Shown here in pieces: positions 21,669 through 51,112 of a stretch of DNA of 64,000 bases. Below the pieces are notes generated by a model. That model was not told where the DNA came from. It saw only the letters and a list, made by a program, of their open reading frames with translations, and did no database searches. Source of the stretch: an uncultured Flavobacteriaceae bacterium (GTDB lineage Bacteria > Bacteroidota > Bacteroidia > Flavobacteriales > Flavobacteriaceae); the NCBI GenBank assembly GCA_947501845.1, contig CANMXP010000007.1, positions 151,381 through 215,380 on the forward strand. Direction: 5' to 3'. Positions within the stretch are counted from its first letter, which is position 1, and each line of letters opens with the position of its first letter. The translations under genes and the position numbers were made by a program.

Positions 21669-21670
21669 AA

Positions 21671-22006: not shown

Positions 22007-22236
22007 TTTTGTTTGTTTTTAGGTTCTGTATAATCAACTGTTCTTATTTTCTTTTAAGGAACAAGGTTTAAAATCTCTTCTTTTAATTAGTGCTACAAAA
22101 CAAAGCTAAATATTATGCTTTTACTACCCTATTTTCCGTGAAAATAGTAGAAACCTTTGCTTATCTGTACTATTTTTTAATAAAATATTGATTTTCGTTT
22201 TTTATCTTGTTACGTGATTTTAATCTCTTTTCAGCG

Positions 22237-23205: not shown

Positions 23206-23214
23206 TCTTACTAT

Positions 23215-23685: not shown

Positions 23686-23689
23686 ACCT

Positions 23690-24556: not shown

Positions 24557-24558
24557 CT

Positions 24559-25901: not shown

Positions 25902-25963
25902 ATTGCGTTTATTTTACGCAAATGTATAAAGAGAAAATGAGATAACAAAATTTTGTGTAATAT

Positions 25964-33300: not shown

Positions 33301-35249
33301 TAGTTAGAGCCTACGCACAGTTCTTTTGGAACGCTTTAGACAATGAAACTAAAGCGATCTGGAATCAAAAAATAAAAGCTTCAGGCGAAGTTTTATCAGC
33401 TTTTCCTAACAGTAAAGAATACCAAGTTATTATAGATGCATTAAATCATGAATTAAGCACATGTATATTTCAAAACATCATTTCTAAACATGATGAAGAT
33501 GGCATAGATACGCTTGAATTTGAAACGGCCTCATATTTATTTGATGAGTTACAAAGCGACAACACCTTTTGTATTAGCAAAACGGCTCAAGAATTATTTA
33601 ACAACTTTACAAAGGCTTTAGAAAGCAAAAACGTATTTACAGCTTTTAAAATGTCTCTTAAAACCGCTCTTGGTGATAAAAATATAACTACCGATGCCGT
33701 ACAATTAGCTGTGCAATGGGTGAGTTCTTTTGTAAAATCTCAAGCTCCAGAAAATATAGAATACATTTATGAAGTTGTTGCGCTAATACTATTTAAAAGT
33801 GAGGCCAACTCAAATATCATTCAGGTAAGCCCAACCTTAGTTATCCAAAATTTAAAAGGAAGTCACACTTCAATTAACGAGGGGAATTTTGAGTTCAATT
33901 ATCATCATTTTATAAATCAGCTACAACACTTCTATACCATTGAAGTACCCGCATTTAACGAGTATCGTGAAGCTAAACATTCTGTAACCGAAGCCCTGAA
34001 GGAACAACTAAAACTTGAAGAGTTTAAACCAAGAGTGTTATCATCTTTTGTAAGAAACAAACTTATAGACAAAGTCTATTTGCCATTATTTGGAGATAAT
34101 TTATCCAAACAATTAGGAAGTATAGGCGATAACAAACGTACCGACCGTATGGGGATGCTATTACTTATATCACCTCCTGGTTATGGTAAAACCACTCTAA
34201 TGGAATACATGGCAAATCGTTTAGGACTTATATTTATGAAAATAAATGGTCCAGCCATAGGTCATGAAGTCACTTCTGTAGATCCATTAACAGCAAATAA
34301 CTCTGCAGCTCGAGAAGAACTGAACAAGCTTAATTTAGCTTTTGAAATGGGTAATAACGTCATGCTGTATTTGGACGATATACAACATTGTAACCCAGAG
34401 TTTTTACAAAAATTTATATCGCTTGCTGATGGCACTCGTAAAATAGAAGGTGTTTATAATGGTAAACCTAAAACTTACGATTTGCGCAGCAAAAAGTTTT
34501 GTGTAATAATGGCAGGTAATCCATATACCGAAAGTGGGGAGAAATTTCAAATACCAGATATGTTAGCTAACCGTGCTGATATTTATAATTTAGGTGATAT
34601 TATTGGAGATACTGCAGATTTATTTAAGCTTAGCTTAATTGAAAATGCATTAACCTCAAACCCTATTCTACACCAATTAAGCAGTAAATATTTTGAAGAC
34701 ATCTATGAATTAATAGAAGTTGTAGAATCTGGAAATCGAGACAACTTAGCACTTAAAGGCAACCATACAAAACAAGAAATTCAAGATTATTTAGCAGTAT
34801 TAGACAAGGTTGTTACCATTCGTAATACCGTATTAAAGGTAAACGAAACCTATATTAAATCGGCTGCAATGGATGACAATTATCGTATTGAACCTTCTTT
34901 TAAACTACAGGGGTCTTATCGTGATATGAACAAATTGGTAGCCAAGGTAGTTCCCATTATGAACAATAAAGAACTACAAACTCTTTTATTGTCGCATTAT
35001 GAAAATGAATCGCAAACACTCACAAGTGCTGCCGAGGCCAATTTATTAAAATACAAAGAGCTTACACATACTATCGATGAAACCGAAACTGAGCGCTGGA
35101 AAACCATTAAAGATACGTTTGTAAAAAACAATAAGTTAAAAGGTTTCGGCGATCAAAATGAAATGACACAAGTGCTTGCACAAATGATGCAATTTAGCGA
35201 ACATTTAGAAGGCATACAGAATGTACTAAAGAGTGGTTTGGATAGGTAA
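30327..35249 (+). CDS. Very large (1640 aa) protein with C-terminal AAA+ ATPase (AAA_5/MoxR-dynein-like) domain
   Basis: Walker A LLISPPGYGKTTLMEY. Walker B-like VMLYLDDIQHCN. Arginine-finger region NRADIYNLGDI. Long coiled-coil/alpha-helical N-terminal two thirds without recognisable motifs. The true start may be the Met at 30357 (MEQTNSENN). Confidence 0.6.
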   Translation: MISNSIKEKTMEQTNSENNIQLDGGTYEIIQGRLQKQKSELLSRLSQLNDARKSVFGNVETKLIANNRINTENNCIARDIVTIGDKCLFGYNVHFGLRTGITLADVFSIYTYDSDHFTIQPLDILEDAIFINDFTNLYKYYRNTIFSKFAIVGNYLHMVFQLSDSITDIKTFKWLINDNKLEYVDNRSEHEFKFPNQHEFNWVEPTRDHHVYGEHPHISILDKVFVETIGGDLTIKIEDNTEDGKGIYSEPVEHPDQTLDDGQYKYADLGNLITLEIKPFQETPRYFVYNHKIQEVKKIPSIADACVLLPDDQGIIFADGYYLQSGDFKLFDNGISNVKFKKKVSSPNGEDFLYVFYESERGLYVLMSYNVIEQEVKTPIICNGYTILNDGELCYFKTEDEQTKHHVIQIWQTPFLKGDVIPSEHTDTLLYKIGNKDIVKAMAECQALITLLNKEDSYDGLYDDIAKSSSDVLNSYYWITEPDTFLINEPLTELNEAANAAIDEFEKVVQLRKTAANITKDTQTKANGIFGKIKSSTFKSIEDFVFVLSQLRTLRGEVIGLNDIRYIDTSFISGLEEEIVLQNDKISERCVQFLLNDKALIPYHNRVAEKETALDEIKKVIDAKKLEEDVNQIATDLEMLIDIVSNLEIEDASHSTKIIDNISLIFATINQLKAGLKNKLKALGEKEASAEFAAQLKLVDQSIINYLDIATTPEKTDELLNKVSVHLEDLEGRFADFEDFISQIIEKREEVYNAFETRKNSLVEARNKKAITLEAAANRILKGVTKKALSFKTTVEINGYFASDLMINKLRDIITRLKDLDDAGKAEAIETGLKVAKEDAVRKLKDTQDLYEDGENIIKLGKHKFGVNKQPLDLTIVYKDETLKYHLTGTDFYQTIEDKTLITSQKYWNQELISENQHIYRSSYLAYKIFTNASLDINQLNETELLELVKNESSKNYSEGYIKGVHDEDATQILKALINKHHDLGLLRYTPIVRAYAQFFWNALDNETKAIWNQKIKASGEVLSAFPNSKEYQVIIDALNHELSTCIFQNIISKHDEDGIDTLEFETASYLFDELQSDNTFCISKTAQELFNNFTKALESKNVFTAFKMSLKTALGDKNITTDAVQLAVQWVSSFVKSQAPENIEYIYEVVALILFKSEANSNIIQVSPTLVIQNLKGSHTSINEGNFEFNYHHFINQLQHFYTIEVPAFNEYREAKHSVTEALKEQLKLEEFKPRVLSSFVRNKLIDKVYLPLFGDNLSKQLGSIGDNKRTDRMGMLLLISPPGYGKTTLMEYMANRLGLIFMKINGPAIGHEVTSVDPLTANNSAAREELNKLNLAFEMGNNVMLYLDDIQHCNPEFLQKFISLADGTRKIEGVYNGKPKTYDLRSKKFCVIMAGNPYTESGEKFQIPDMLANRADIYNLGDIIGDTADLFKLSLIENALTSNPILHQLSSKYFEDIYELIEVVESGNRDNLALKGNHTKQEIQDYLAVLDKVVTIRNTVLKVNETYIKSAAMDDNYRIEPSFKLQGSYRDMNKLVAKVVPIMNNKELQTLLLSHYENESQTLTSAAEANLLKYKELTHTIDETETERWKTIKDTFVKNNKLKGFGDQNEMTQVLAQMMQFSEHLEGIQNVLKSGLDR

Positions 35250-35295: not shown

Positions 35296-36357
35296 TCAAC
35301 ATATTTGACTGTAAAATAGACTTCTTAATTCCACAAGAAGTCTATTTATCTTTTCAAGATCAGGTCTGTTTTGTAAACTAGAATCAGCATACCGTTTTAC
35401 TAACTCTTTTTTCCGCTCTTCAGCCCAAAACACCAACTCATCATATTCATATTTACCTTGCTTGACATCTAGCAGAAAAGCTCTATCAGGACGCATAACA
35501 TGAATAATCTTTTCGAAGGCAATTTCCTTAGCCATATGCAATAGTCTAAACGTATGCATCATATTTTTAGAATCGTAATTTTTACCGTGAGACACAGTTG
35601 TTTTATAACGTTCTTCATTGCGCTTGCCTACCCAATCCCAATATTCTTTATACTTTTTACAATATGTTGAATATCCATCTTTGTTAAAGAAAAGCATTCC
35701 TATTGCTATTTCTCCTTTAGGAATAGAACTTAGTGCAATATCATTGGCTATTTCACTTTTTATAATGCCTTTATAAGGAATCTCTAAGCTATGATATAGA
35801 TTATTGCAATCTTTAAGATGTGAAATATTTGCTATACCGCAATTTTCTTGTTTTATCTTTTTAGCATCTAAAAATGTTTTTAAAGACATTGTTTTGCCTT
35901 TTTCATATACCAAACAAAAATCTAAAACCGACTTACGTTCTTTTTCAACAGGATTCACAATTTTCTTTTCCAAACCTCTTGCTTTTTTAATTTGAGCATA
36001 GGCATAGTTAGCAAATGACTTTTCACATTGTTTAGACAAAAAATACTCGAGCTTTATCTCATCAAATATAGGATGCTTGTAAAGCACACATTCTTCAGGT
36101 ACATTTAATAACTCTAGGATATTAGGGTTGTTTTTTGAGCAGAGTTCTATAAATTTTCGTAGCTCATAATAGACAATATCATTCGTTTCATTGTTTATTT
36201 GACCAATATAATCAAGCGAATAAAAGCTTTCTTTAGGAAGAACGAACACACCTCTTATATCAGTATCTGATGTAGGTGTGTCCAATCCATAAGCTCTACT
36301 CCCACTTATACATTCAAAAATGATATGCCCCGAAGCTTTTAATTCTTCTAGTGTCAT
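35296..36357 (-). CDS. Pol-beta-superfamily nucleotidyltransferase (RlaP-like, 'RNA-ligase-associated' NTase family)
   Basis: GSRAYGLDTPTSDTDIRGVF (GS…D.D NTase motif). 353 aa. Confidence 0.65.
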   Translation of the reverse strand: MTLEELKASGHIIFECISGSRAYGLDTPTSDTDIRGVFVLPKESFYSLDYIGQINNETNDIVYYELRKFIELCSKNNPNILELLNVPEECVLYKHPIFDEIKLEYFLSKQCEKSFANYAYAQIKKARGLEKKIVNPVEKERKSVLDFCLVYEKGKTMSLKTFLDAKKIKQENCGIANISHLKDCNNLYHSLEIPYKGIIKSEIANDIALSSIPKGEIAIGMLFFNKDGYSTYCKKYKEYWDWVGKRNEERYKTTVSHGKNYDSKNMMHTFRLLHMAKEIAFEKIIHVMRPDRAFLLDVKQGKYEYDELVFWAEERKKELVKRYADSSLQNRPDLEKINRLLVELRSLFYSQIC

Positions 36358-37103
36358 TATATTATCGTTTTTAAAAACAACTCGTTAAAGTCATCTGGAT
36401 TAGATTTTTTATTAACTAATTTATTTTTAATTCTATTGTTTTCGTTTACTATATCTCTTACTAAATGTATTAAATCCACTTCTACAGGATCATTACTTTT
36501 CTCTATACGCTCACTCTTTAACGCAATAAGTGCATCTAATTTGGAATGATAACTTGTATCTATTAATGAATACATCTCTCTAAACAACACTGGTGGAATA
36601 GTTTCATTTTTATAAATCCAGTTTGCACAAAGTGCTGTGCGTATTGCATAGAAGAAACTTTTTAATGTCATCTTCTCTGAACCTAATGTCTCTTCAAAAT
36701 TTTTATTCATACTATGAAAATGATAAAACCCAGAAACTGGATTAAAGTTAGCATTGGCTACTTTCTTTATCTCATTTAAGAAATCATTATTTGCACGATA
36801 TACAATTGGTGAAAATAACCATCCTGTAAAAGATGCATTTGACTTTGCTAATAATCGTAATGCCTTTCGGATATCCCAACCAGAACCATCCAAATCATCT
36901 TCCGTCATAAACTGTATCGTATCTGCTTGTTCCCAAAGGTTTAAATACCAATCTTTAGAATGTTTGTACACAAAGCGTATATCATAATCAGAATCTGGAG
37001 ACGCAAAGCCCCAGGCTCTACTTCCCGATTCTACTGCGAACAAGATTTCTATATTTTTATCCTGTTCTATTTGTCTTAATTTGTCTAATATTTTCGCTTT
37101 CAT
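36357..37103 (-). CDS. Pol-beta-superfamily nucleotidyltransferase (RlaP-like), paralogue of the downstream gene
   Basis: GSRAWGFASPDSDYDIRFVY. 248 aa. 1-nt overlap with the next NTase gene. Confidence 0.65.
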   Translation of the reverse strand: MKAKILDKLRQIEQDKNIEILFAVESGSRAWGFASPDSDYDIRFVYKHSKDWYLNLWEQADTIQFMTEDDLDGSGWDIRKALRLLAKSNASFTGWLFSPIVYRANNDFLNEIKKVANANFNPVSGFYHFHSMNKNFEETLGSEKMTLKSFFYAIRTALCANWIYKNETIPPVLFREMYSLIDTSYHSKLDALIALKSERIEKSNDPVEVDLIHLVRDIVNENNRIKNKLVNKKSNPDDFNELFLKTII

Positions 37104-37160: not shown

Positions 37161-37241
37161 TGAATATTATTTGTTATATTACCTTTAAATACGCTCCTTA
37201 ATAAAACAAAAATGCGTCAACCTAAATCAACGCATTTCCTA

Positions 37242-38342
37242 TTACTTATTCACTGAGAAAATGTCCTTTAACTGCTCAATAACGTTACCGTTACCAGCAA
37301 CAGTAATCTCACCAATTTTATCAGCAATTTTCTCTACGTATTCCATCTCTTTTAATTTAAACAACATACTGTTGTCTTCCATTAATTTTGCAGTATTTAA
37401 CAAGCTTCGTGTAGACGCAGTTTCTTCTCGTCTTGTTACCACATTTGCTTGCGCTTTTTTGTGAGCAATCAATACTTGGTTCATGATATCTTTCATATCA
37501 CCTGGTAAGATCACATCTCTAATACCAGTATGTAATACGTTTACACCCAATTTACCAGCTTGTGCTTTTACATCGTTTAAAACAGCTTGAGCAATAGTTT
37601 CTTTTTGCTCTAACAATTCATCTAATGTATAAGTACCAACAAAGGCTCTCAATGCTAATTGTAAGACAATATATAATTGCTTTTCGTAATCTTTATTGTG
37701 CATTAATGCAGTCTCAATGTTTGCGACTTTATATTGCGCATAAAAGTTAATACGAACTGTTGCCTTATCTTTAGTTAACAATTCTTGACCAGCAACTTCT
37801 AATTGTAACTGACGTAAATCGGCTTTTGCTATTTTAATCGTTTGGTCATTTCTCCAGAAGTGGTATGTACCATGTTCTAAAGTTTTTACAAACTTATCGT
37901 TTACAATCATAACCGCTTTTTCGTAAGCAGCTACTTCAAATACTCTGATGTATCTGCTTAATTCTGGCTTATTGTAGATTGCTTTTTCGATAGCTTCTGT
38001 AATCTCGATTTTGCTTAAATCTGCAGTTACAAATTTATAGTCAATCAAGCTATTCCAGTACGTGTAACGTCCTGCAGCTAATACCTGCTTAAAGTTACCG
38101 TTTTCGTATACCAAAACAATCTCATTATCCTTAACCTCAACTACGGTTAACATATCTGCCAAAGCTTGATCTTTAAGTAAGATCTCTAATGCTTTTGGCG
38201 CGTTAAATGGCTGAGACAAGCTATATTTTACAACTTTCGCTCTAAAGCCTATCCAATGCTTACCCTCGGTAATAACACGTGTGTAATTACCATTTTTAAA
38301 CACTAAACCTACCATACCTGCATGAATTCTTACTCTTTTCAT
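37242..38342 (-). CDS. SPFH/band-7 (stomatin/prohibitin-like) protein
   Basis: 366 aa. SPFH core (…ATVRINFYAQYKV…DELLEQKETIAQAV…) plus C-terminal coiled-coil (…HKKAQANVVTRREETASTRSLLNTAKLMEDN…). Confidence 0.75.
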   Translation of the reverse strand: MKRVRIHAGMVGLVFKNGNYTRVITEGKHWIGFRAKVVKYSLSQPFNAPKALEILLKDQALADMLTVVEVKDNEIVLVYENGNFKQVLAAGRYTYWNSLIDYKFVTADLSKIEITEAIEKAIYNKPELSRYIRVFEVAAYEKAVMIVNDKFVKTLEHGTYHFWRNDQTIKIAKADLRQLQLEVAGQELLTKDKATVRINFYAQYKVANIETALMHNKDYEKQLYIVLQLALRAFVGTYTLDELLEQKETIAQAVLNDVKAQAGKLGVNVLHTGIRDVILPGDMKDIMNQVLIAHKKAQANVVTRREETASTRSLLNTAKLMEDNSMLFKLKEMEYVEKIADKIGEITVAGNGNVIEQLKDIFSVNK

Positions 38343-38740: not shown

Positions 38741-38805
38741 AAAATGGATAAAAGTCCACATCCTACATTATGAGTGTAGTGCTCTACCTACTGAGCTATG
38801 TAACC
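38741..38805 (-). ncRNA. tRNA-like element: intact tRNA-Met(CAU)-type 5' two-thirds (acceptor 5' strand, D-arm, anticodon arm CUACA-CUCAUAA-UGUAG) but degenerate T-arm and no matching acceptor 3' strand
   Basis: Reverse complement reads GGTTACATAGCTCAGTAGGTAGAGCACTACACTCATAATGTAGGATGTGGAC... Confidence 0.35.
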
Positions 38806-38810
38806 TAAAA

Positions 38811-38877
38811 TGGTGGTCACAACAGGATTCGAACCTGTGCAAAAATCTATTGCTCTAACCGCTGAGCTACTTCCCCA
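38811..38877 (-). ncRNA. tRNA-like element lacking an anticodon arm: acceptor-5'/D-arm (GGGGAAGTAGCTCAGCGGTTAGAGC) joined by 14 nt to a T-arm (CAGGTTCGAATCCTG), ending in genomically encoded ACCA. Candidate tRNA mimic (Y-RNA/YrlA-like)
   Basis: Reverse complement of 38811-38877. The complementary CTTCCCC lies 20 nt upstream in the transcript (38894-38900), adjacent to another T-arm. Confidence 0.35.
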
Positions 38878-40300
38878 TGTTTTCCGATATAATTAGAGGG
38901 GAAGATGGGAGTCGAACCCATGACACATAGATGTCGGTTATTGTTTAACCAAATAACCAGTTGGTACCAAGCCAAGTTGAACATAAAAACCTCATACGAA
39001 ACCGTAAGGATTTATACAATAGTGCTATATCGAAACACGTAACAAGACTTACTTGATATTTTTTCTGTAAAAACAGATATTTTGTACCTCTTACCAGATT
39101 CGAACTGGCACTTTCAGATTCCTCTGAACAGATAGGCTCTAAATGCGCTTCCCTACTTTACATCCTGCGTATTTCGGTGCTTCTGCAAAACCTAGTCATT
39201 GGCGGGCGCACCACCAACCACATCATCCTATCACTCCACGGTTACGTTAATCTTTTTCCGCAGCTCTTCCCTTTAAGCTAAAGAGGTATTTTATATTTAA
39301 AAAAAGCGTTCTGAGAATACCTTCGCTTATAGACAAGCTTTCCTAGTATTATAGCCGTAGCCTTTCTCTAGTTTTCCACATACTTCTCATTGCTTAGAGA
39401 AATATGTACTTGTCTGATGCCTAATTACATTACAGCTGTTCAGCGACTTAGACTTGGCTTGCATAGTGGTTATTTACCACGCTTTGCAACTACAAGGGTT
39501 GGCTCCCTCACCATTAGTAGGCGTCCTCTATTTGAGGCGGCCTATTAGAATGTTCACTACACAGTAAAGGCTTGCGACCTCTACCGTCCCATATATTGCA
39601 ATGGGTTTAGGCAACTACTAGCTGCTGTAATGTTCGAAGTCTTTTGCGATTTGCTCACCGACTGAGCTATCCTTAAATTGGTTTATAGGATGGGACTTGA
39701 ACCCAAATAGTTTTTCGACCTAGGAAAAGGGCTTCGAAAATGGCTTCGTAGATTTTTGCCCACAAAATACCAACCTTTTCCTTGTGTGCCTCCCAACACA
39801 CGACATTTTAAGTTACCGAACAATTTCTCATCGGGTCACTCTAATATTGCAATACGCTCCGCTAGGCTGGATAACCTAAACGTAACCCATTACTACAACT
39901 TTCCCTGTTGATGTCTCCATCGCAAGCCTAATTCCTGTTGGCTATAAGCTCTTATTTACTTTAGCGGTTGCCCCTAGCAAATAATAACTTATGTGAGTTG
40001 CTTGCTTACCTGTACTGCCTTCTAATGAAAGTAGTCTCCACTTGCTGTGTCCGCAAATAGATTTATCCTTGTTGCCAAGTTTATCTAAGGACGATAAGCC
40101 GCCCCATCACTCAATAACCGAGATTAAAGAATGATGATTTTTTATACTAATGAAACTAATATTTAGCTTCAATTTATGTCAATGAACATTTTTTATTAAG
40201 CTCTGCCAGTTTCTAACGTCTGGCAGAGCGCTACTTTTAAAAAGTCTAATTCCAAAAGACTTTTTAGATTCCCAATTTCTCGGGAATGACAGCTACCTGT

Positions 40301-40356
40301 CAATTACTCTGCAAATATTTTGTGATATTGCGCAATGATTTTGCGTAGTTAAAAAT
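40301..40356. promoter_or_regulatory. Copy of a shared ~55-bp cis-element (ctctgcaaatatttt-N5-attgcgcaat-N-attttgcgtagtt-aaaa) immediately upstream (minus orientation) of the ncRNA region
   Basis: Near-identical copy at 44511-44565. Related copy at 49358-49415. Confidence 0.5.
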
Positions 40357-40868
40357 TATTTTAATTTTCTAAATGTTAAACTCATTCTTCCGTTTTCAGT
40401 ATTTGATTTTGTTATAGCATGTTGCCACTCGTTTTGAATCTCATTAGCCATATAAATTAATGAACCAGAAACAAGATTAAAGTCAACAATTATCTCTCGA
40501 TTTTTAACATTTCTAAATCGAAGTGTTCTAGTCTCACCCACAGAAATAATCACTACACCTGTATCATTTTCTAGAATGTCTATTTGATCAGAATGAAATC
40601 CCATTGATGAGTTTCCATCTTCATAATAGTTTATCAAACAATTATTAGGTCTAAAACCAAGAGTACTATTAATGGATTCAATAATGTCTTTTAAGTCAGA
40701 TGTAAAAGGCTGAAAAGGATATTCCATTTGAGAATAATCATAAGCCCTTCCAAAACTAGCTGTTTTCCTTGCCGACATTCTTTCATCCCAAATAATATTA
40801 TTTTTTAATATTTCAAACAATGACTCATGATTATCTAAAAAGTTTTCTCTATAAATAATTCCTTCCAT
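40356..40868 (-). CDS. alkB: AlkB-family Fe(II)/2-oxoglutarate-dependent dioxygenase (nucleic-acid demethylase)
   Basis: 170 aa. HxD (MGFHSDQ), distal His (EWQHAI) and RxSxTFR (RMSLTFR) signature. Confidence 0.72.
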   Translation of the reverse strand: MEGIIYRENFLDNHESLFEILKNNIIWDERMSARKTASFGRAYDYSQMEYPFQPFTSDLKDIIESINSTLGFRPNNCLINYYEDGNSSMGFHSDQIDILENDTGVVIISVGETRTLRFRNVKNREIIVDFNLVSGSLIYMANEIQNEWQHAITKSNTENGRMSLTFRKLK

Positions 40869-40971: not shown

Positions 40972-41466
40972 GTGAAGTACTTTACACCACCTTATCTGCA
41001 CAAGACGAACTTGCAAAGGCATAAGGTTTAGCTTTAAAGACAAACCCCATTCCTAATATATAGCCCATAGCATCCTTAAGCGCCACATTAGACTGAAACT
41101 TAGGGTCAGTATTAATATCTGCGTGTACCTCTAATTCAACATTATATTTGTCTAGTATATCACAGATAGTAATGCTACTTCAACAGACATTGTTACCTCT
41201 TTAAGCATTCGCTCTTTAATACCAATGTGTTTTGTGCCTTTATAATTTGTCATAAACATAAAACCACCTTTACCTTCTCGAAGTACTACAATGACAGTTG
41301 CATACTCTACGTGAGATTTATAGGCTTGAGAATCCGAACCCACACAAACCTTAAGACGATGTCCTGCTTTTTGCTCTCTTATAATGGCATTTTCTATGAT
41401 ATCTGTAATAGGCAGATCAAACACTTTACCACTAAAGTTTCTCCATTTTTGTTGTGCAATTTTCAT
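40972..41466 (-). pseudogene. DUF458/YkuK-family (RNase-H-like fold) gene interrupted by a single frameshift
   Basis: ORF 41152-41466 (…KVCVGSDSQ…VIVVLREGKGGFMF…VEVALLSVIY*) continues in another frame as CDILDKYNVELEVHADINTDPKFQSNVALKDAMGYILGMGFVFKAKPYAFASSSCADKVV* ending at 40972. Both halves match the YkuK pattern (GTDSQ…GKGG…HxDhxxD…KPxAFA). Confidence 0.5.
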
Positions 41467-41500
41467 GATTACTCATTTTTTTAGTTAAACATTTATATTG

Positions 41501-41573
41501 TGGAACAAACTGGACTCGAACCAGTATCTTCGGAGCTTCAATCCGACGCATAGACCTGTTTTGCTATTGTTCC
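41501..41573 (-). tRNA. tRNA-Phe (GAA)
   Basis: Manual fold of the reverse complement GGAACAATAGCAAAACAGGTCTATGCGTCGGATTGAAGCTCCGAAGATACTGGTTCGAGTCCAGTTTGTTCCA. Perfect 7-bp acceptor, anticodon loop UUGAAGC, T-loop TTCGAGT. CCA not encoded. Confidence 0.8.
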
Positions 41574-41578
41574 TTTTT

Positions 41579-41651
41579 GGGTGACTTTGGGATTCGAACC
41601 CTATTTTCCTCATTCACAGTGAGGTGTTTTACCACATAAACTAAAGCCACC
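41579..41651 (-). tRNA. tRNA-His (GUG)
   Basis: Anticodon arm CCUCA-CUGUGAA-UGAGG. Discriminator C. T-arm AGGGTTCGAATCCCA. Confidence 0.75.
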
Positions 41652-41659
41652 ATAGCCTG

Positions 41660-41730
41660 TTAATCCGATAGGACTCGAACCTATACCTCAGGAGTCAAAT
41701 TCCTGTATGCTGCCTTTACATCACGGATTA
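41660..41730 (-). tRNA. tRNA-Gln (UUG)
   Basis: Acceptor TAATCCG/CGGATTA. Anticodon arm CAGGA-AUUUGAC-UCCUG. T-arm ATAGGTTCGAGTCCTAT. Confidence 0.7.
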
Positions 41731-41735
41731 ATTTG

Positions 41736-41860
41736 TAGGTCTAATAGGATTTGAACCCATACCACAAGGGTCGAAATATTATATATTCACGAATTCCTAT
41801 TTAATGAAATGGTTATACAATGAGCTAAACCTTGTATGCTATCCGTTACACCATAGACCT
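41736..41860 (-). tRNA. Atypical ~125-nt tRNA-like gene: canonical acceptor (AGGTCTA/TAGACCT), D-arm and T-arm, UAG at the anticodon position, but a ~53-nt AT-rich insertion inside/after the anticodon loop (enclosed by helix CAAGG…CCTTG)
   Basis: Manual fold. Paralogous to 42420-42541, including the insertion. Confidence 0.45.
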
Positions 41861-41866
41861 ATTTTG

Positions 41867-41940
41867 TACTCCCCCTTGGATTCGAACCAAGACTTAACAG
41901 GGCTTAAACCTGATGCCTCTTCCATTTGGGCTAGTGGAGC
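41867..41940 (-). tRNA. 74-nt class-I (short variable arm) tRNA-like gene with anticodon UAA (Leu-type anticodon on a non-Leu-type body), discriminator A
   Basis: Anticodon arm (U)CAGG-UUUAAGC-CCUG(U). Acceptor GCTCCAC/GGGGAGT with one mismatch. Confidence 0.5.
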
Positions 41941-41945
41941 AATTG

Positions 41946-42019
41946 TACAGGGAAAGAGACTCGAACTCTCAAATTTCAGATTCTAAATCTGACGCCTATA
42001 CCTATTCGGCTACCCCTGC
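41946..42019 (-). tRNA. 74-nt class-I tRNA-like gene with anticodon UAG (Leu-type anticodon, short variable arm), discriminator A
   Basis: Anticodon arm UCAGA-UUUAGAA-UCUGA perfect. Acceptor GCAGGGG/TCCCTGT with two G·U. Confidence 0.5.
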
Positions 42020-42024
42020 ATGTG

Positions 42025-42098
42025 TTGAGATGTCAGAATTCGAACCTGAACCCTTCGCCTTATGAGAGCGATGCTCTACCAAATTAAGCTACATCTCA
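42025..42098 (-). tRNA. tRNA with CAU anticodon (elongator Met or lysidine-Ile2 type; U1-A72)
   Basis: TGAGATG-TAGCTTAATTTGGTAGAGCA-TCGCT-CTCATAA-GGCGA…CATCTCA-A. Confidence 0.75.
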
Positions 42099-42108
42099 CT
42101 ATGCCTTG

Positions 42109-42181
42109 TTGAGATATTAGGACTTGAACCTAAACCTATCATCGTATCAGGATGATGCTCTACCAATTAAGCTATATCTCA
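42109..42181 (-). tRNA. tRNA-Ile (GAU)
   Basis: TGAGATA…TCATC-CTGATAC-GATGA…TATCTCA-A. Confidence 0.78.
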
Positions 42182-42186
42182 ATATG

Positions 42187-42258
42187 TTGAGGCAATAGGA
42201 TTCGAACCTATGACTTTCACGATGTAAGCGTGACGCTCTTCCTCTGAGCTATACCTCA
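42187..42258 (-). tRNA. tRNA-Val (UAC)
   Basis: TGAGGTA…TCACG-CTTACAT-CGTGA…TGCCTCA-A. Confidence 0.75.
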
Positions 42259-42263
42259 ATTTG

Positions 42264-42335
42264 TACTCCGTAAGGGAATTGAACCCTTAATTCCACATAG
42301 AAAGTGTGGCGTCTTAGCCATTTGACCAACGGAGC
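42264..42335 (-). tRNA. tRNA-Glu (UUC)
   Basis: GCTCCGT…CCACA-CTTTCTA-TGTGG…ACGGAGT-A. Confidence 0.7.
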
Positions 42336-42340
42336 TATTG

Positions 42341-42412
42341 CGGTTCATACGAGAATCGAACTCGTATCTCCCGAGAGACAGTCGGGAAGGATAACCATTA
42401 CCCCAATGAACC
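42341..42412 (-). tRNA. tRNA-Asp (GUC), discriminator G
   Basis: GGTTCAT…CCCGA-CTGTCTC-TCGGG…ATGAACC-G. Confidence 0.75.
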
Positions 42413-42419
42413 AATTTTG

Positions 42420-42541
42420 TACATCTACTAAGATTCGAACTTAGACTTAGAGATTAGAAATGCTATGCATTCACAAACACCTTCATTTAAAATAAAATGA
42501 GTGAGCTAAATCTCTTGTGCTATCCCTTACACCATAGATGC
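42420..42541 (-). tRNA. Atypical ~122-nt tRNA-like gene, paralogue of 41736-41860: acceptor GCATCTA/TAGATGT, D-arm TGGTGTAAGGGATAGCA, loop start TTTAGCTCA (UAG), ~50-nt insertion closed by helix AGAGA…TCTCT, normal T-arm
   Basis: Manual fold. The insertions of the two paralogues align (…TTAAAT…GTGAAT…ATTTC…). Confidence 0.45.
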
Positions 42542-42547
42542 ATGTTG

Positions 42548-42630
42548 TGGAAGTGGTAGGACTCGAACCTACAAACTCATAAGAGACCAGATTTACAGTC
42601 TGGCGAGCCAACCAATTGCTCAACACTTCC
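42548..42630 (-). tRNA. tRNA-Tyr (GUA), class II with long variable arm
   Basis: GGAAGTG…CCAGA-CTGTAAA-TCTGG + 13-nt variable arm + GTAGGTTCGAGTCCTAC + CACTTCC-A. Confidence 0.78.
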
Positions 42631-42638
42631 TTTATTTG

Positions 42639-42711
42639 AGACAAGGATGAGATTCGAACTCATAAATAACGGATTTGCAATCAGACGCCTTAGCCATTCA
42701 GCCACCTTGTC
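42639..42711 (-). tRNA. tRNA-Cys (GCA)-like, discriminator U. The anticodon stem has two mismatches relative to a canonical Cys tRNA (UCUGA…UCCGU), so possibly a weakened/pseudo tRNA
   Basis: GACAAGG…TCTGA-TTGCAAA-TCCGT…CCTTGTC-T. Confidence 0.5.
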
Positions 42712-42715
42712 TTAG

Positions 42716-42787
42716 CTATATTGGAAGGATTCGAACCTACAACTTCAGACTTAACAGGTCTTTGCTCTACCTTTGAGCTACAATATC
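42716..42787 (-). tRNA. tRNA-Asn (GUU), discriminator G
   Basis: Anticodon loop CUGUUAA. T-arm GTAGGTTCGAATCCTTC. One G1·A72 mismatch in the acceptor. Confidence 0.65.
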
Positions 42788-42792
42788 ATTTG

Positions 42793-42880
42793 CGGAGAGT
42801 AGAGGAATCGAACCTCCACCGCCTCTGGTGCGGCCTTGTTTAGCAGACAAGTGCAACAAACCAATATTTGCCTACTCTCC
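42793..42880 (-). tRNA. tRNA-Ser (GCU), class II, discriminator G
   Basis: GGAGAGT…CTTGT-CTGCTAA-ACAAG + 16-nt variable stem-loop + GGAGGTTCGATTCCTCT + ACTCTCC-G. Confidence 0.78.
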
Positions 42881-42894
42881 ATTAATTACTTTCG

Positions 42895-42967
42895 TCTGAG
42901 AGACAGGATTCGAACCTGCAACCTCTCGCTTCCAAAGCGAGTAAACCAACCATCGTTATCCTCTCAG
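42895..42967 (-). tRNA. tRNA-Pro (UGG), C1-G72, discriminator A, G at position 8
   Basis: CTGAGAG…CTCGC-TTTGGAA-GCGAG…CTCTCAG-A. Confidence 0.65.
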
Positions 42968-42972
42968 TTTTG

Positions 42973-43115
42973 CGGAAGGAGTGGGAGTCGAACCCACACG
43001 AGTCATTAACTCCGAACACTTTTAACTCAAAGATTTCTATTCTGATAAACAGGATTCGTTGAATTCGTAAACACATTTCAAGAGTGTGGCCACCACTAAT
43101 TTGGCTTGTCCTTCC
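42973..43115 (-). tRNA. Atypical ~143-nt tRNA-like gene: acceptor GGAAGGA/TCCTTCC, discriminator G, apparent anticodon arm ACACU-CUUGAAA-UGUGU (UGA, Ser-type), T-arm GTGGGTTCGACTCCCAC, but ~75 nt between the anticodon stem and the T-stem (Ser variable arm plus ~55-nt AT-rich insertion)
   Basis: Manual fold of the reverse complement. Confidence 0.4.
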
Positions 43116-43121
43116 GTTTTG

Positions 43122-43194
43122 TTGACGCGGTGGGTCTCGAACCCACGACCTCGGCGTTAAAAGCACCTTGCTCTGCCAACTGAGCTACGCGTCA
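43122..43194 (-). tRNA. tRNA-Lys (UUU), discriminator A
   Basis: TGACGCG-TAGCTCAGTTGGCAGAGCA-AGGTG-CTTTTAA-CGCCG…GTGGGTTCGAGACCCAC-CGCGTCA-A. Confidence 0.75.
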
Positions 43195-43218
43195 CTATGT
43201 TATTTCAATGAACATCAT

Positions 43219-43256
43219 AAAAAAAGCGCCTCGTTTTATGGAAGGCGCTTTTTTTA
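43219..43256. terminator. A-tract / GC hairpin / T-tract (aaaaaaagcgcct-cgttttatgga-aggcgcttttttt). Bidirectional terminator-like structure at the 5' side of the tRNA array
   Basis: Read directly. Confidence 0.55.
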
Positions 43257-43379
43257 TATTTATGAATACGTATCTATGTATCCATAACCTTCCTAGTATA
43301 TATTGTAAATCTTTCATCATTCCCTGCCGCGACCATCTGTTTCGGCGAGCCTATGCAGAGACTTATTTGAATAGTATGT

Positions 43380-43670
43380 TCTAAATAGTTTGTCATTTGT
43401 TTTTTAATTATTTCGACGGTGCAAATATGAAATGTATTTTTGAATTACACAAGAAAAATATCAATTTAATTTACTGACAATCAATTAGTTATGTTAGGTT
43501 TAGAAAATAGAGTCCCTGTCCGTTTTTTACGGATAATCGTTAATTTTCACAATAGTCAGTCTCCCTGTTGTTTATCAATTATTTGCTATTTTTTATACTT
43601 GCTTAACTTTTCATTTTATTTTTAAAAAAATTCATAAAAAAAGCGTCCAATTTTCATTGGACGCTCGATA
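43380..43670. repeat. Copy A of a ~270-bp intergenic module also present at 47470-47725. Ends in the hairpin aaaaaaagcgtccaat-tttc-attggacgct
   Basis: Aligned blocks, e.g. aattacacaagaaaaatatcaatttaatttactgacaatcaattagtta vs aattacgcaagaaaaaaaataatttaatttactaaaaatcaaatagtta. Confidence 0.55.
43634..43665 (-). terminator. 10-bp stem hairpin followed (on the minus strand) by a U-tract. Intrinsic terminator downstream of the HEPN-like gene and upstream of the tRNA array
   Basis: agcgtccaat/attggacgct with tttc loop. A8 tract on the plus strand. Confidence 0.6.
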
Positions 43671-44510: not shown

Positions 44511-44565
44511 TTACTCTGCAAATATTTTACACTATTGCGCAATATTTTTGCGTAGTAAAAATCAT
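44511..44565. promoter_or_regulatory. Copy of the shared ~55-bp cis-element (ctctgcaaatatttt-N5-attgcgcaat-atttttgcgtagt-aaaa) directly upstream of the HEPN-like gene
   Basis: ~90% identical to 40301-40356. Confidence 0.5.
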
Positions 44566-45101
44566 TTCCTTTTCTTCTTTGATTTTTTAGATGATTTCTT
44601 CTTTTTATCCAATTTCATCTTCTTTTCTATACGCCTTTGTTCATCTACCATAAAATCATAATAATGATCATTATAGCAGTGCCTTTTTGCTTCTTTTAAG
44701 TATTTTAAGCAGGTTTTGTATTTTCCTTGCGTTTCCTCTATATAAGAAGACAACCAATTTATTTCGGCTTTACTTATCGTTTCTATAGTTTGTGAAAAGT
44801 CTACTAGTTTTTTTGCTCTATCTATCTTGTTATTCCAAATTAGGTATTTGATGTACATTGGATAAACATCTTCGTAACTGGTATCTATAGCAATAACTTT
44901 ATCAAAACATTCAAATGCTTTCTCTGGCATCGATAAATATTTTGCATAGATTTCTCCTAATAAGCAAAGTGACGCACAGTGGTTTTCATCGTACGAAAGT
45001 GCATAGTTTAAAGATTCACAAACTTCTTCCCAGTCACTACAAAAACCACTTGTTGCAGCTTTTGCTTTTAAATAATAACTGTCTGCTAATGTTAATCCCA
45101 T
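44562..45101 (-). CDS. TPR-like helical-repeat protein with lysine-rich C-terminal tail
   Basis: 179 aa. Tail [17 protein letters not shown]. Overlaps prfH by 10 nt (operon). Confidence 0.35.
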
Positions 45102-45787
45102 TTTTGTTGTCTTAAATTATTCTTTAATTCTTGTCGTTTAGACTTGTAATTTTTATTTATTTTTTGTGTTTTAAAATCAGTTCCAATAAAAACACGTACT
45201 GGATTCCCTCTTTCTAAATTGAGGTGGTTTCCCCATTGGTTCTGAACTGATTTTTTTAATTGCTCATTATTATATTCAGCTACTTTTTCTTGTAACCGTT
45301 TTATAGCTATCTTTTTATTTTGGTGCTGAGACCTGCTGTCCATTACCAAAACCTGTATGCCTGTTTTTGTATGTGTTGCTCTAATGGCTGAGCTTACTTT
45401 ATTAACATGTTGTCCTCCTGGCCCTGAACTTCTAATAGCTTGAAATTTTATATCGCTATCTATTAAAAGAGTCCCTTTCTCAGCTTCAATTTCATAAATA
45501 CCAACAAACCAATTTTTTCGCTTACGAAATTTTCTGAAAGATGATTTTCCTATCCATTGTACTGTCCCCAACCAATTGCTTAAAAAAGACTCCAACGCTT
45601 TTCCTTGTAATTGAATAGTTGCAGATTGTAACGTTCCGTTTTCTGTACCAGATTCTCTTTGTAATAGCGTATATTCTATTTTCGCTTTTTTTATCTCTTC
45701 AATGAAATACTTTAAAACTTGAGCTACAACCCAGCAACATTCAATAGGTCCTCTTCCTGATGTTATTTGTATTGTTTTTGTTTTCAT
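45092..45787 (-). CDS. prfH: PrfH (peptide-chain-release-factor homologue H), the partner of RtcB2 in ribosome/rRNA-repair modules
   Basis: 231 aa. GGQ motif [15 protein letters not shown]. Short RF-like architecture lacking a codon-recognition domain. Start overlaps the rtcB stop. Confidence 0.8.
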
Positions 45788-47178
45788 TATTTATCCATTC
45801 TAACAATTTTTGGTGTAAATGTTCCTAACACTTCTACCAATTCTTGTTGATTATTCATTACTTTTTTAATGTTCTTATAAGCCATTGGTGCTTCATCTAC
45901 GCCACCACCAATAAGCGTAACATCATGCATTTTTAATTGCTGCTTTATATCACTTTTTGTGAATTTCTCTTTGCACTTTCTTCGTGAATGCAAACGTCCT
46001 GCTCCATGAGATGCCGAGTTTAAGCTTTCACTATTACCCAAGCCTTGTACTATATATCCAGGAGCAGTCATCGATCCTGGGATAATACCCAACTCGCCTT
46101 TATTGGCTGGTGTTGCTCCTTTACGATGTACAATACATTCTTTATCGTTTACCATTTCTTTCCAAGCAAAATTGTGGTGATTTTCAATCTTAACTACAGC
46201 TTTAGAACCCAGTAACTTTCCTATGCGATAATGAATGTCGTCATGACATGCCTTAGCGTAATCACCAGCTAGATTCATAGCTAGCCAATATTCTTGACCA
46301 TCATGCGTATTTAAATCCAGCCATGCTAAATGCTGAACATTTTTAGGTAATGGGCATTGTTTACTAGCTAAATAGGTATAATGTTTTGCAATGTTAGCTC
46401 CTAATCCTCTTGAGCCACTATGTGACAATACACCTATGTAATCACCAGCTTTAAGCTGCCATTGATTATCCTCATCCGTTATAGAAACCACTCCAAACTC
46501 CACAAAATGATTGCCTCCTCCCGATGTTCCCAATTGCTTAAATGCTTTTATCTTTAACCGTTTTAGTAAAGGAATATCGTCAAACTCAGCTCTTGCAAAA
46601 ATCTCATGGTCGTGTTTTTTATCATGTGTTTCATACATCCCAAATTTGGTGTGATTTGATAAAATATTCTCCAACTGATGTTGCTTCCCCTTTAAATAAG
46701 AAGCTTTCATTGGGTAAATGGTTAAACACATTCTACACCCAATATCTACCCCAACACCATAAGGAATTACTGCATTATCAGTTGCTAAAACAGCGCCTAT
46801 TGGCAACCCATAACCTGAATGTGCATCTGGCATTAAAGCTCCTGATACAGCTATTGGTAATTTTAAGGCATCGTATAATTGGTACTTTGCTTGTTCATCA
46901 ATCTCGTTTTCACCATAAATATTAAAAGGCACTCTTGTATTTTTAAGTTGATGAAATTTAACCTCAACTGGCTTTACCAAACCTTCAACTACTTTTCCCC
47001 AAATGGCATTACCTTGAAATTTTTCTGGGTTTTGTAATACGGCTTTCGCTTCTTCCAAAATGCGTTCTTTTTTTTCTCTTTTTCGGTATCTGTTTATTTG
47101 CCCTAAAGCAATATTGATACTATTATTTTTTGGGAACCCCAATTTTATTAGGTCTTTCCCTTTTAGTTTATTTCCCAT
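45787..47178 (-). CDS. rtcB: RtcB-family RNA 3'-phosphate/5'-OH ligase (RtcB2-type, paired with PrfH)
   Basis: 463 aa. [33 protein letters not shown] catalytic motifs. Confidence 0.85.
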
Positions 47179-47888: not shown

Positions 47889-49274
<1,386 letters not shown>

Positions 49275-51080: not shown

Positions 51081-51112
51081 TTTTATTGACAGATACGAAT
51101 TAAAATTAGCTA

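Follow-up and report, generated by a model that had tools for sequence, protein, structure and literature searches.

The DNA analyzed here, a stretch of 64,000 nucleotides (nt) from an uncultured Flavobacteriaceae bacterium (contig CANMXP010000007.1; hereafter, the window), carries on its minus strand 19 co-oriented transfer RNA (tRNA) genes packed into 1.7 kb, within a chromosomal island of RNA-repair genes. We see slightly better than even chances that these genes form a long accessory tRNA array (L-array) now integrated into a chromosomal response to RNA damage, an emergency supply of tRNAs being coupled to RNA repair. L-arrays have been described as supernumerary, horizontally spread, and neighboured by rtcB, and the array of Anabaena is induced by translation inhibitors and aids survival (PMC8421152). 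They are recognized as sets of ~15-43 co-oriented tRNA genes, as close as in an operon and non-periodic in order, and the array of the window has these features. Long tRNA arrays and GOLLD RNAs are both old puzzles, and in this island they share one apparent transcription unit with enzymes of ribosome and tRNA repair. The location of such an array beside GOLLD, and beside RtcB, PrfH, RlaP, and AlkB repair genes, has in both cases been published already; what appears to be new is the leader module preceding the array, a family of inserts in tRNA loops, the non-canonical loops together with short-arm Leu tRNAs, and a turnover of the tRNA genes as fast as that of the neighbouring coding DNA.

By ARAGORN, 16 tRNA genes are detected at 41500-43194, all on the minus strand, and no tRNA in the rest of the window; the same 16 genes score 35.9-69.5 bits with the Rfam tRNA model (gathering score, 29). 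Three longer, tRNA-derived genes occupy the ARAGORN gaps 41731-41865 (135 nt), 42413-42546 (134 nt), and 42968-43120 (153 nt) and bring the total to 19. The dense co-oriented array that the original prediction had placed at 41501-43194 is therefore confirmed, as are its very short spacers (~3-14 nt), and the gene order is non-repeating. The longest element, taken earlier for a long Ser(UGA)-like gene, is indeed a class-II tRNA-Ser(UGA); its additional 55 nt sit inside the anticodon loop and its variable arm is normal, which rules out a long variable arm as the cause of its length. The two elements described as long and UAG-like are instead tRNA-Arg(UCU) and tRNA-Arg(UCG) with inserts, as called by ARAGORN when introns are allowed; the anticodon had been misread because TAG constitutes the first three bases of the insert (TT/TAGCTCA..., the slash marking the junction). 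The array thus covers 16 of the 20 amino acids with one tRNA per codon box. Its only gaps are Ala, Gly, Thr, and Trp, whereas Arg, formerly listed among the absent ones, is present as two interrupted genes. The reported lack of a canonical class-II Leu holds, both Leu tRNAs being 75 nt long and devoid of the long variable arm. On the other hand, the proposed enrichment for anticodon-nuclease targets does not exceed chance: since 16 of 20 amino acids are covered, all seven targets would be included with P = C(13,9)/C(20,16) = 0.15. The suggestion that the array replenishes or protects the tRNA pool is consistent with the anatomy of the locus, this enrichment apart. The missing amino acids, the non-canonical loops, and the variable content among close relatives favour a supernumerary status. 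As for the tRNA ends, in nearly all array members of the window (41500-43194, minus strand) the discriminator base is followed by C-A(-A) and not by CCA, so that a CCA-adding or repair enzyme would be needed for every one of them; two RlaP-family nucleotidyltransferases are encoded in the same island.

The array belongs to a conserved arrangement whose marker is ykuK, a gene for an RNase H-like protein. Loci fetched through ykuK were L099 (Chryseobacterium scophthalmum-like), L101 (C. foetidum), L102 (C. nematophagum), L103 (a Flavobacteriaceae metagenome-assembled genome), L187 (strain CT-SW4), L188 and L189 (metagenome contigs), and L190 (C. soldanellicola), and in every one of them a co-oriented tRNA array immediately precedes ykuK. 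The AlkB-like gene led to one more metagenome contig, L167, which is a close relative (YkuK 91% identical) with the same leader and almost the same gene order as the window. Downstream of ykuK, the relatives carry variable repair sets (Rnl2, RLIG1-like or LigT-like ligases, or RtcB with PrfH) and genes for RNase T, R2K ATP-grasp proteins, Ro/TROVE, and Band-7 proteins. Judged from these sequences, a Flavobacteriales module made of a putative promoter, a leader of ~40 codons, a terminator abutting the first tRNA, the array, and ykuK appears to be conserved and new; our literature search found nothing on ykuK-linked tRNA arrays. The arrays themselves turn over rapidly and are patchily distributed, as is typical of L-arrays: between 2 and ~19 genes of differing content occupy the same point of synteny in related genomes, and L188 and L189, which come from one sample, have identical flanks and different arrays. 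The 14 tRNAs that can be compared between the window and L167 are on average 79.7% identical, and the ykuK coding DNA next to them gives the same value at the nucleotide level. The tRNA identities range from 99% (Asp) to 53% (His), and the diverged tRNAs still fold as tRNAs. These comparisons suggest that the array genes are fast-evolving accessory genes and not housekeeping ones. Two side observations illustrate such changes. One tRNA body, at 9577-9650 in both L188 and L189, reads CAU as its anticodon in one of these contigs and CUU in the second, which is an anticodon shift inside the array. In L167 (965-1059 and 1719-1849), 3' halves of tRNA-Cys and tRNA-Leu(UAG) are duplicated after the intact genes, the Leu half twice; they consist of the T-arm 3' strand and the acceptor 3' strand, with an altered pseudo-T-loop. 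Unlike ykuK, the gene for a HEPN-fold protein upstream of the array was rejected as an array marker, as a tRNA lies in just 3 of 80 homologue loci and two close homologues (84-86% identity) stand in unrelated contexts. The AlkB-like neighbour gave chance matches or none in viral contigs.

Expression of the array might be controlled by its leader. The window, L167, L101, L102, L103, L187, L188, L189, and L190 all have a leader open reading frame (ORF) and an intrinsic terminator immediately ahead of their first tRNA; the promoter-like box of the window has an analogue, TTTACTTTGCA, in the Chryseobacterium leaders. Leader ORFs of the eight related loci have 35-60 codons with 17-20 different amino acids, and a probability of 0.018 was obtained for finding at least 19 amino acids in 40 residues of real proteins of the window. 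The distance from the U-tract to the first tRNA is 24 nt in the window and 2 nt in four Chryseobacterium loci, so close that no space is left for a separate promoter and array expression would need read-through. An antiterminator can be drawn, since the 5' strand of the terminator (43240-43246) can pair with 43287-43293, in the last codons of the leader. When the nascent RNA is folded with the terminator 3' strand still unmade, the 5' strand pairs within the last 6-9 leader codons and encloses a hairpin with the stop codon. This alternative pairing was present in all five leaders folded by hand and in 6 of 8 loci in an automated fold, L103 being positive by hand only. The helix is GGAAGG:CCUUCC in the window and L167, GGGAGA:UCUCCC in L188, and AGGUGCU:AGCACCU in Chryseobacterium; sequences that differ between lineages and yet remain complementary would amount to covariation at the level of the helix. 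In the folds, the antiterminator pairing disappears once the bases that a ribosome at the stop codon would cover are masked. Equilibrium folding was rejected as support for the antiterminator, the alternative being seen in the co-transcriptional fold only. The sequence has a short ORF, a terminator, and a mutually exclusive antiterminator that overlaps the ORF, all at conserved positions, as expected of an attenuator; a run of regulatory codons, also expected, is absent from the leader. In Rfam, a weak Thr_leader-like match (27.6 bits) is found at 43217-43312. In leader-peptide attenuators of the trp, his, and thr type, a short ORF is likewise followed by an intrinsic terminator whose formation competes with an alternative helix, the 5' strand of which lies in the ORF, but the leader of the window samples nearly all amino acids with no single-codon run, the genes regulated would be tRNA genes, and no 1:2 "pause" helix, by which termination would be enforced when translation is absent, was identified in it. 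The leader would then be a translation-coupled attenuator that reports general translational health. Our literature search found nothing on leader-controlled tRNA arrays.

According to this model, transcription would start at a promoter near 43430 and run through the leader ORF, the terminator, the 19 tRNAs, ykuK, the AlkB-like gene, GOLLD, and the tRNA- and Y-RNA-like elements up to the Band-7 gene. Under brisk translation of the leader, the ribosome at the stop codon would cover the segment formed by the last codons, the terminator would form, and the array would stay off. When translation is slow or fails, as with tRNAs cleaved or depleted or ribosomes damaged, the segment would remain free and pair with the terminator 5' strand, and RNA polymerase would read through into the array. 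The output would be a spare tRNA set, one per codon box, in which the odd loops of Asp and Glu (U37) and of Phe (G37), or the short Leu arm, may allow escape from nucleases or modifications that hit the housekeeping tRNAs, while the neighbouring RtcB, PrfH, RlaP, and AlkB repair damaged RNA. If the attenuator model is true, the cell reads its overall translational health through a leader that samples nearly every tRNA, and responds with a fresh and partly atypical tRNA set. The predicted switch is simple, and culturable Chryseobacterium relatives share the array module (not GOLLD, in the loci examined).

Several points weigh against this model. Nine percent of the mechanical ORFs of leader size in the AT-rich window also reach 19 amino acids. 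The automated fold failed in 2 of 8 loci, in one of them owing to the way in which the terminator was located, and the shuffle control is moderate, 2-17 of 100 trials per locus matching the observed pairing. The terminator hairpin is favoured at equilibrium in every fold, so the switch rests on a kinetic argument. In addition, free RNA forms the antiterminator, and the device would hence be on without any translation, unlike in classical trp logic. The Anabaena array is under repressor control, not attenuation. The statement that the array loops are unlike housekeeping ones draws on the near-universality of purine-37 and on a few non-array tRNAs from other taxa. Finally, 3 of 19 genes are interrupted and ykuK is frameshifted, which makes decay possible.

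The closest known system is the trn operon of Anabaena PCC 7120 (Santamaria-Gomez et al. 2021, PMC8421152). Both arrays consist of ~20 co-oriented, tightly packed, non-periodic tRNA genes, both are patchy and have RNA-processing neighbours that include rtcB, the array of the window is probably supernumerary like that of Anabaena, and the same role in translational stress is proposed for both. The array of the window differs in its occurrence in Bacteroidota, with a leader ORF and terminator where Anabaena has a repressor acting at direct repeats, and in the ykuK gene that invariably follows; no HNH homing endonuclease was seen in it, and three of its members are interrupted by inserts.

Some tRNAs of these arrays depart from the canonical form. 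A purine at position 37 is near-universal in tRNAs. In the related arrays, tRNA-Asp has the loop CU-GUC-UC, with U37, in 7 of 8 copies (6 of 7 loci), the five tRNA-Glu copies divide into three with U37 and two with G37, and tRNA-Phe frequently has G37; the question whether the anticodon loops are mutated thus receives a partial yes. A pyrimidine at this position is found in 11 of 95 array tRNAs and in 0 of 21 non-array tRNAs of the other fetched loci. Both Leu tRNAs of the window have a Leu-type D-arm and A73; the short-arm form recurs in L167, L099, and L101, and is 77-80% identical to phage tRNA-Leu. Identity elements are kept (G-1/C73 in His, U73 in Cys, G73 in Asp, A73 in Leu, Val, Ile, and Phe, and an A20-type D-loop in Arg). 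Another observation concerns the spacers of Chryseobacterium-type arrays, where a free-standing hairpin, CCGACUGUCUCUCGG, copies the Asp anticodon stem-loop, U37 included (L101 8536-8836, L187 8994-9060, L190 9019-9086, and L103 9804-9872), with longer inverted repeats around; it may be a nuclease decoy. These departures lend partial support to the earlier idea of nuclease-related tRNA variants, and the conserved U37 of Asp and Glu and the Asp-loop copies in spacers point to a specific, putative tRNA-directed toxin in Bacteroidota. Work by van den Berg et al. in 2023 reportedly showed that phage tRNAs evade host anticodon nucleases through changes in the anticodon loop. Like such counter-defence tRNAs, the array members are probably extra copies, with loops that leave the canonical pattern (U37 in Asp and Glu, G37 in Phe), but they are encoded by the cell; phage records match the array by single tRNAs only, over at most 8% of the query. 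Separately, an 83-nt GCA (Cys) tRNA with a long variable arm occurs in L099 (38-120), L102 (9767-9849), and L190 (9492-9574). It strongly resembles the class-II tRNA-Tyr of the same arrays, the tRNA-Sec model of Rfam is weakly preferred, and it looks like an anticodon switch from Tyr.

Table 1. Features of the tRNA array, its leader, the surrounding island, and the insert copies of related loci, in transcript order within the window.
Feature	Position	Strand	Remarks
RtcB (outer), then a terminator	47889-49271	-	
RtcB	45787-47178	-	
PrfH	45092-45787	-	NCBIfam equivalog, 234 bits
TPR protein	44562-45101	-	
HEPN-fold protein, 212 residues	43854-44492	-	
Terminator after HEPN-fold gene	43641-43666	-	
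Promoter-like box TTTCATATTTGCA upstream of leader	43420..43432	-	Identical in L167; putative promoter
Leader ORF, 40 codons (MTNYLEHTIQISLCIGSPKQMVAAGNDERFTIYTRKVMDT)	43274..43396	-	19 different amino acids; ORF at same place in relatives
Intrinsic terminator (A-tract, GCGCCU stem, U7)	43219..43255	-	Ends 24 nt before first tRNA
tRNA-Lys(UUU)	43121..43194	-	ARAGORN; Rfam 60.9 bits; first gene in transcript order
Class-II tRNA-Ser(UGA), interrupted	42973..43115	-	55-bp insert 43023-43077, reverse orientation, in anticodon loop; insert model 47.9 bits on + strand
tRNA-Pro(UGG)	42894..42967	-	ARAGORN; Rfam 35.9 bits
Class-II tRNA-Ser(GCU)	42792..42880	-	ARAGORN; Rfam 44.4 bits
tRNA-Asn(GUU)	42715..42787	-	ARAGORN, Rfam
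tRNA-Cys(GCA)	42638..42711	-	ARAGORN, Rfam
Class-II tRNA-Tyr(GUA)	42547..42630	-	ARAGORN, Rfam
tRNA-Arg(UCU), interrupted after U33	42419..42541	-	50-bp insert ~42460-42509, forward orientation; insert model 64.4 bits
tRNA-Asp(GUC)	42340..42412	-	ARAGORN; loop CU-GUC-UC (U37, non-canonical)
tRNA-Glu(UUC)	42263..42335	-	ARAGORN; anticodon loop CU-UUC-UA (U37)
tRNA-Val(UAC)	42186..42258	-	ARAGORN; Rfam 69.5 bits
tRNA-Ile(GAU)	42108..42181	-	ARAGORN, Rfam
tRNA with anticodon CAU	42024..42098	-	ARAGORN; body similar to neighbouring Ile(GAU); probably elongator Met or Ile2
tRNA-Leu(UAG), 75 nt	41945..42019	-	ARAGORN, Rfam; without long variable arm
tRNA-Leu(UAA), 75 nt	41866..41940	-	ARAGORN, Rfam; without long variable arm
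tRNA-Arg(UCG), interrupted after U33	41735..41860	-	53-bp insert ~41776-41828, forward orientation; insert model 71.7 bits
tRNA-Gln(UUG)	41659..41730	-	ARAGORN, Rfam
tRNA-His(GUG)	41579..41651	-	ARAGORN; G-1 encoded
tRNA-Phe(GAA)	41500..41573	-	ARAGORN; G37; last gene in transcript order
ykuK (RNase H-like, PF04308)	40985..41466	-	Starts 34 nt past last tRNA; one frameshift
AlkB-like 2-oxoglutarate-Fe(II) (2OG-Fe(II)) dioxygenase	40356..40868	-	
GOLLD RNA (RF02032), putative, divergent	39305..39782	-	133.1 bits, E ~1e-36, model positions 1-416 (full length)
tRNA-like gene with ~120-nt insert	39084-39287	-	Below YrlA gathering score
Two circularly permuted, Y-RNA-like tRNA-like units	38745-38960	-	Below YrlA gathering score
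SPFH/Band-7 protein	37242-38342	-	Then terminator 37208-37239
Two RlaP-family nucleotidyltransferases	36357-37103 and 35296-36357	-	
L167 inserts			Ser(GCU) T-loop; Arg(UCU) T-loop; one chimeric gene between Tyr and Arg
L101 inserts			Pro T-loop; Cys T-loop
L187 insert			Cys T-loop

The array is embedded in an island in which everything from 49271 down to 35296 lies on the minus strand, and the terminator after the HEPN-fold gene sets it apart from the upstream RtcB-PrfH operon. The annotation of the neighbours bears out the earlier description of a chromosomal RNA-repair island with no phage structural genes; indeed, no phage, integrase, or transposase gene occurs in the 64 kb, and outside the island the window has the usual content of a Bacteroidota chromosome (SusC/SusD, FG-GAP proteins with type IX secretion tails, a nicotinamide adenine dinucleotide (NAD)-salvage and adenosine diphosphate (ADP)-ribose operon, alpha-2-macroglobulin). 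That description lacked the GOLLD RNA, the leader ORF with its terminator, and the insert family. The ykuK frameshift lies near 41150, both halves being 91-92% identical to the intact L167 protein, and could reflect a pseudogene, a sequencing error, or recoding. The GOLLD match is full length and its conserved motifs align, but its score stays below the Rfam gathering score (133.1 vs 150 bits), and it is treated here as a divergent GOLLD RNA. It lies 1.7 kb downstream of the array, in the same orientation and within a non-coding region of ~2 kb; ~570 nt more of non-coding DNA lie on its 5' side (39783-40350), and it perhaps extends to ~40350. Its linker holds a permuted tRNA-like element. GOLLD is located in or beside tRNA arrays (PMC6582537, PMC12286853), and that of the window, with its tRNA-like linker element, is near an array like the GOLLD RNAs of phages, prophages, and mycobacteria (Weinberg 2009; Morgado 2020; PMC6582537; PMC12286853), from which it differs in its lower score and in its setting, a chromosomal repair island with no phage genes. 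It is absent from the related Flavobacteriales islands examined.

The permuted units beyond GOLLD share the architecture of YrlA, a bacterial Y RNA: T-arm, acceptor 3' strand, loop, acceptor 5' strand, and D-arm, in this order. Comparable tRNA-like elements precede the Band-7 gene in L188 (10716-11069), L189 (10787-11127), L101 (16785-18015), and L174 (4184-4310), and in L174 a YrlA above the gathering score lies right behind the tRNA array. Repair operons of the rsr-yrlBA-rtcBA type, as in Salmonella, encode Ro, Y RNA, and RtcB. RtcB2-PrfH is a ribosome repair module (PMC9304027, PMC9223846), and RlaP restores damaged tRNA 3' ends (PMC12776372). As in the first two systems, RtcB adjoins PrfH in the window, and tRNA-like and Y-RNA-like elements occur in the island, which differs in also having GOLLD and a full tRNA array. 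In relatives, TROVE/Ro genes and a bona fide YrlA are present, whereas the 64-kb window has no Ro/TROVE gene.

The three interrupted genes of the window share one type of insert. ARAGORN places the 50-nt and 53-nt inserts of tRNA-Arg(tct) and tRNA-Arg(tcg) at position 33, and the true Arg anticodons follow them (...GCATT/TCT-AA and ...ATATT/TCG-AC). The two genes are homologous over their full length, insert included, with compensatory differences in the acceptor, anticodon, and T stems. In tRNA-Ser(UGA), comparison with L167 gives an anticodon stem ACACU/AGUGU, with compensatory pair changes between the two, and places the 55 nt within the loop (CUUGA/.../AA). Removal in silico restores canonical cloverleaves of Arg(tct), Arg(tcg), and Ser(tga) by ARAGORN. 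Nine copies are known (three in the window, three in L167, two in L101, and one in L187), and deletion gives a canonical tRNA in eight. Empty sites exist in orthologues of Pro (L102, L187, L190), of Cys (L099, L102, L190), and of the Arg(UCU) anticodon loop (L167), and the L167 equivalent of the window Arg(UCG) is an uninterrupted Arg(ACG). The copies align end to end once those in T-loops and the Ser(UGA) copy of the window are reverse-complemented, with the consensus TT/TAGCTCA ... AT-rich ... AGGnnTTCRYGAATGCnnnGCATT/TCNAA. Read in the frame of the element, every target consists of a 5-bp stem and a loop of 7 nt that is cut NT^TCNAN: it corresponds to the Arg anticodon loops (TT^TCTAA and TT^TCGAC), to the complement of the Ser(UGA) loop (TT^TCAAG), or to the complement of the T-loop (AT^TCGAA), where the insert follows A58. 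In summary, the element enters anticodon loops and T-loops at TT^TCNA; either orientation occurs, and TT is present at both junctions. It has one subterminal hairpin with covarying pairs (GC, AU, and GU/AC variants), in which 95.6% of the cells are paired and 2 pairs are changed on both sides, a result equalled in 0 of 500 shuffles. Over ~1 Mb searched, a covariance model of the insert finds just the nine copies, all in array tRNAs; a degenerate pattern gave none outside array tRNAs in 190 loci plus the window, and viral contigs gave none beyond chance matches. Our literature search found nothing on short inserts in bacterial tRNA loops. These sequences suggest a previously undescribed, tRNA-loop-specific family, which appears to be new and may be a spliced intron or selfish DNA. 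In the first case, Bacteria would have their first protein-spliced tRNA introns, and in the second, a new selfish element that targets tRNAs would have been found.

Some candidates for the nature of the insert were rejected. A group I intron or small ribozyme does not fit, 50-55 nt being compared with a core of at least 200 nt, and no Rfam intron or ribozyme hit was obtained at E<=1. A bulge-helix-bulge at the junctions was not supported either, as the folds are three-way junctions or extended hairpins and not 3-nt bulges 4 bp apart; only for the T-loop copies could a relaxed look-alike be drawn, by hand. Miniature inverted-repeat transposable elements and IS200-IS605-derived elements are expected to have numerous dispersed copies, inverted repeats at the termini or hairpins near them, and a cognate transposase. 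For comparison, the insert has one subterminal hairpin and the defined target TT^TCNA, and its nine copies in ~1 Mb all lie in array tRNAs; no cognate transposase was seen in the 64-kb window. As regards enzymatically spliced tRNA introns, two RtcB genes are in the window, but no EndA-type endonuclease domain was found among its proteins. Fujishima et al. are said to have described in 2010 non-canonical tRNA introns of archaea, with a proposed transposition in Thermoproteales. Both these and the inserts are short related sequences at differing positions (anticodon loop, T-loop ~58/59), with RtcB encoded nearby; the host of the window is nevertheless bacterial, bulge-helix-bulge and EndA were not found, and the inserts occur in both orientations with the target TT^TCNA. 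Archaeal tRNA introns also occur at the positions that the insert occupies, namely after 33 or 36 in the anticodon loop and after A58 in the T-loop, where the T54-A58 motif stays intact.

The interrupted Arg and Ser genes can work only if the insert leaves the transcript. They might be genuine intron-containing tRNAs, from which a structure-recognizing protein endonuclease excises 50-55 nt and an RNA ligase of the island (RtcB in the window; Rnl2, RLIG1-like, or LigT-like in relatives) rejoins the ends; we consider this unlikely, and it would add to the reading of the array as an emergency tRNA supply, not replace it. Intact, compensated stems in all three window genes (the Arg pair; Ser(UGA) against L167), the spared T54-A58 motif, and the presence of an RNA ligase and the RNase H-like YkuK in every island leave room for such removal at the RNA level, as do the recovery of canonical tRNAs in eight of nine copies, the covarying hairpin, the confinement to array tRNAs, and the coincidence with archaeal intron positions. 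Structure recognition would also account for the two orientations. These orientations and the sequence-defined target argue, however, for insertion at the DNA level, and the covariation, strictly Watson-Crick, is that expected for DNA or for either strand. Moreover, the junctions lack a bulge-helix-bulge and the window an EndA-type domain, the size is far below that of group I introns and Rfam gives no ribozyme match, L101 and L187 carry inserts without RtcB within 20 kb, the Pro copy of L101 has a T-stem mismatch, and the L167 copy between Tyr and Arg belongs to a chimeric gene in which the acceptor strands are unable to pair. We find less credible still a stronger version in which the inserts would form a new class of bacterial tRNA intervening sequences, mobile, homing to TT^TCNA in 7-nt loops of tRNA genes in either orientation, and tolerated because the transcript would be cut by a protein endonuclease (YkuK, linked to the array, or the HEPN-fold protein are candidates) and resealed by RtcB. 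Such protein-catalysed splicing of bacterial tRNAs would take place within a translation-sensing, attenuator-controlled, GOLLD-carrying emergency tRNA operon. Alternatively, the array could be what is left of a decaying tRNA island of a phage or mobile element; it would have arrived with GOLLD and lost its use for the host, and a selfish mini-insertion directed at tRNA loops would now be eroding it. The usual residence of GOLLD and long tRNA arrays in phages and prophages and their horizontal spread, the three interrupted genes and the ykuK frameshift, the duplicated 3' halves and chimeric gene of L167, a tRNA divergence as fast as that of adjacent coding DNA, and the resemblance of the short-arm Leu tRNAs to phage tRNA-Leu would all fit. 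The probability of this alternative is nonetheless low, given 64 kb without phage, integrase, or transposase genes, no similar array or insert in any phage record or viral contig searched, and a module that runs from leader and terminator through array and ykuK to the tRNA-like elements and Band-7, kept across Chryseobacterium species and other Flavobacteriales beside host repair genes. All 16 uninterrupted genes, in addition, score as good tRNAs despite ~20% divergence, and U37 of tRNA-Asp is kept across divergent arrays.

It has also to be considered that the main task of the array RNAs might be to divert anticodon nucleases, or other toxins that bind tRNA, as decoys or sponges, and not to serve as working adaptors. 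A sponge was proposed for the Anabaena array (PMC8421152), and pyrimidine-37 in Asp and Glu, the spacer hairpins of Chryseobacterium, and the interrupted Arg and Ser genes, unable to decode as transcribed, agree with it. Yet the uninterrupted members have complete cloverleaves and retain the identity elements of His, Cys, Asp, Leu, Val, Ile, Phe, and Arg, and the layout of one tRNA per codon box resembles a decoding set, which makes a role mainly as decoy very improbable. That the array is simply the ordinary housekeeping tRNA cluster of the organism has a practically negligible probability. Some bacteria, mainly Bacillota, do have long housekeeping clusters, of which L078 is an example; the array of the window, however, has no Ala, Gly, Thr, or Trp gene, a single isoacceptor per amino acid, Arg in interrupted form only, Leu without the class-II arm, and U37 in Asp and Glu, its content differs sharply among close relatives, and a terminator abuts its first gene.

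Other genes of the window and of the related loci deserve mention. A giant AAA protein with DUF3686 is encoded at 30327-35249, and the same protein lies downstream of the array in several related loci. The minus-strand region 17820-26656 encodes NAMPT, an adenylosuccinate-synthetase-like protein, an ADP-ribosylglycohydrolase, two macro-domain proteins, a metallo-beta-lactamase-fold protein, a phosphoribosyl pyrophosphate (PRPP)-synthetase-like protein, and an NrtR-type Nudix regulator, which suggests an operon for NAD salvage and the handling of ADP-ribose. On the plus strand (49470-52129), divergent from the outer RtcB gene, a subtilase is encoded together with a WYL/WCX-domain protein, the latter being a candidate regulator of the repair genes. 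A Flavo-1 RNA (RF01705) is found in L099 (9889-9977, minus strand) and L101 (16057-16173, minus strand), on the opposite strand and immediately after the Ro/TROVE gene. Finally, a bpX/bpMoxR gene set (PF19915-PF19920, PF20030) lies upstream of the array in L187 (475-8048), L190 (11-7746), and L101 (1-2091).

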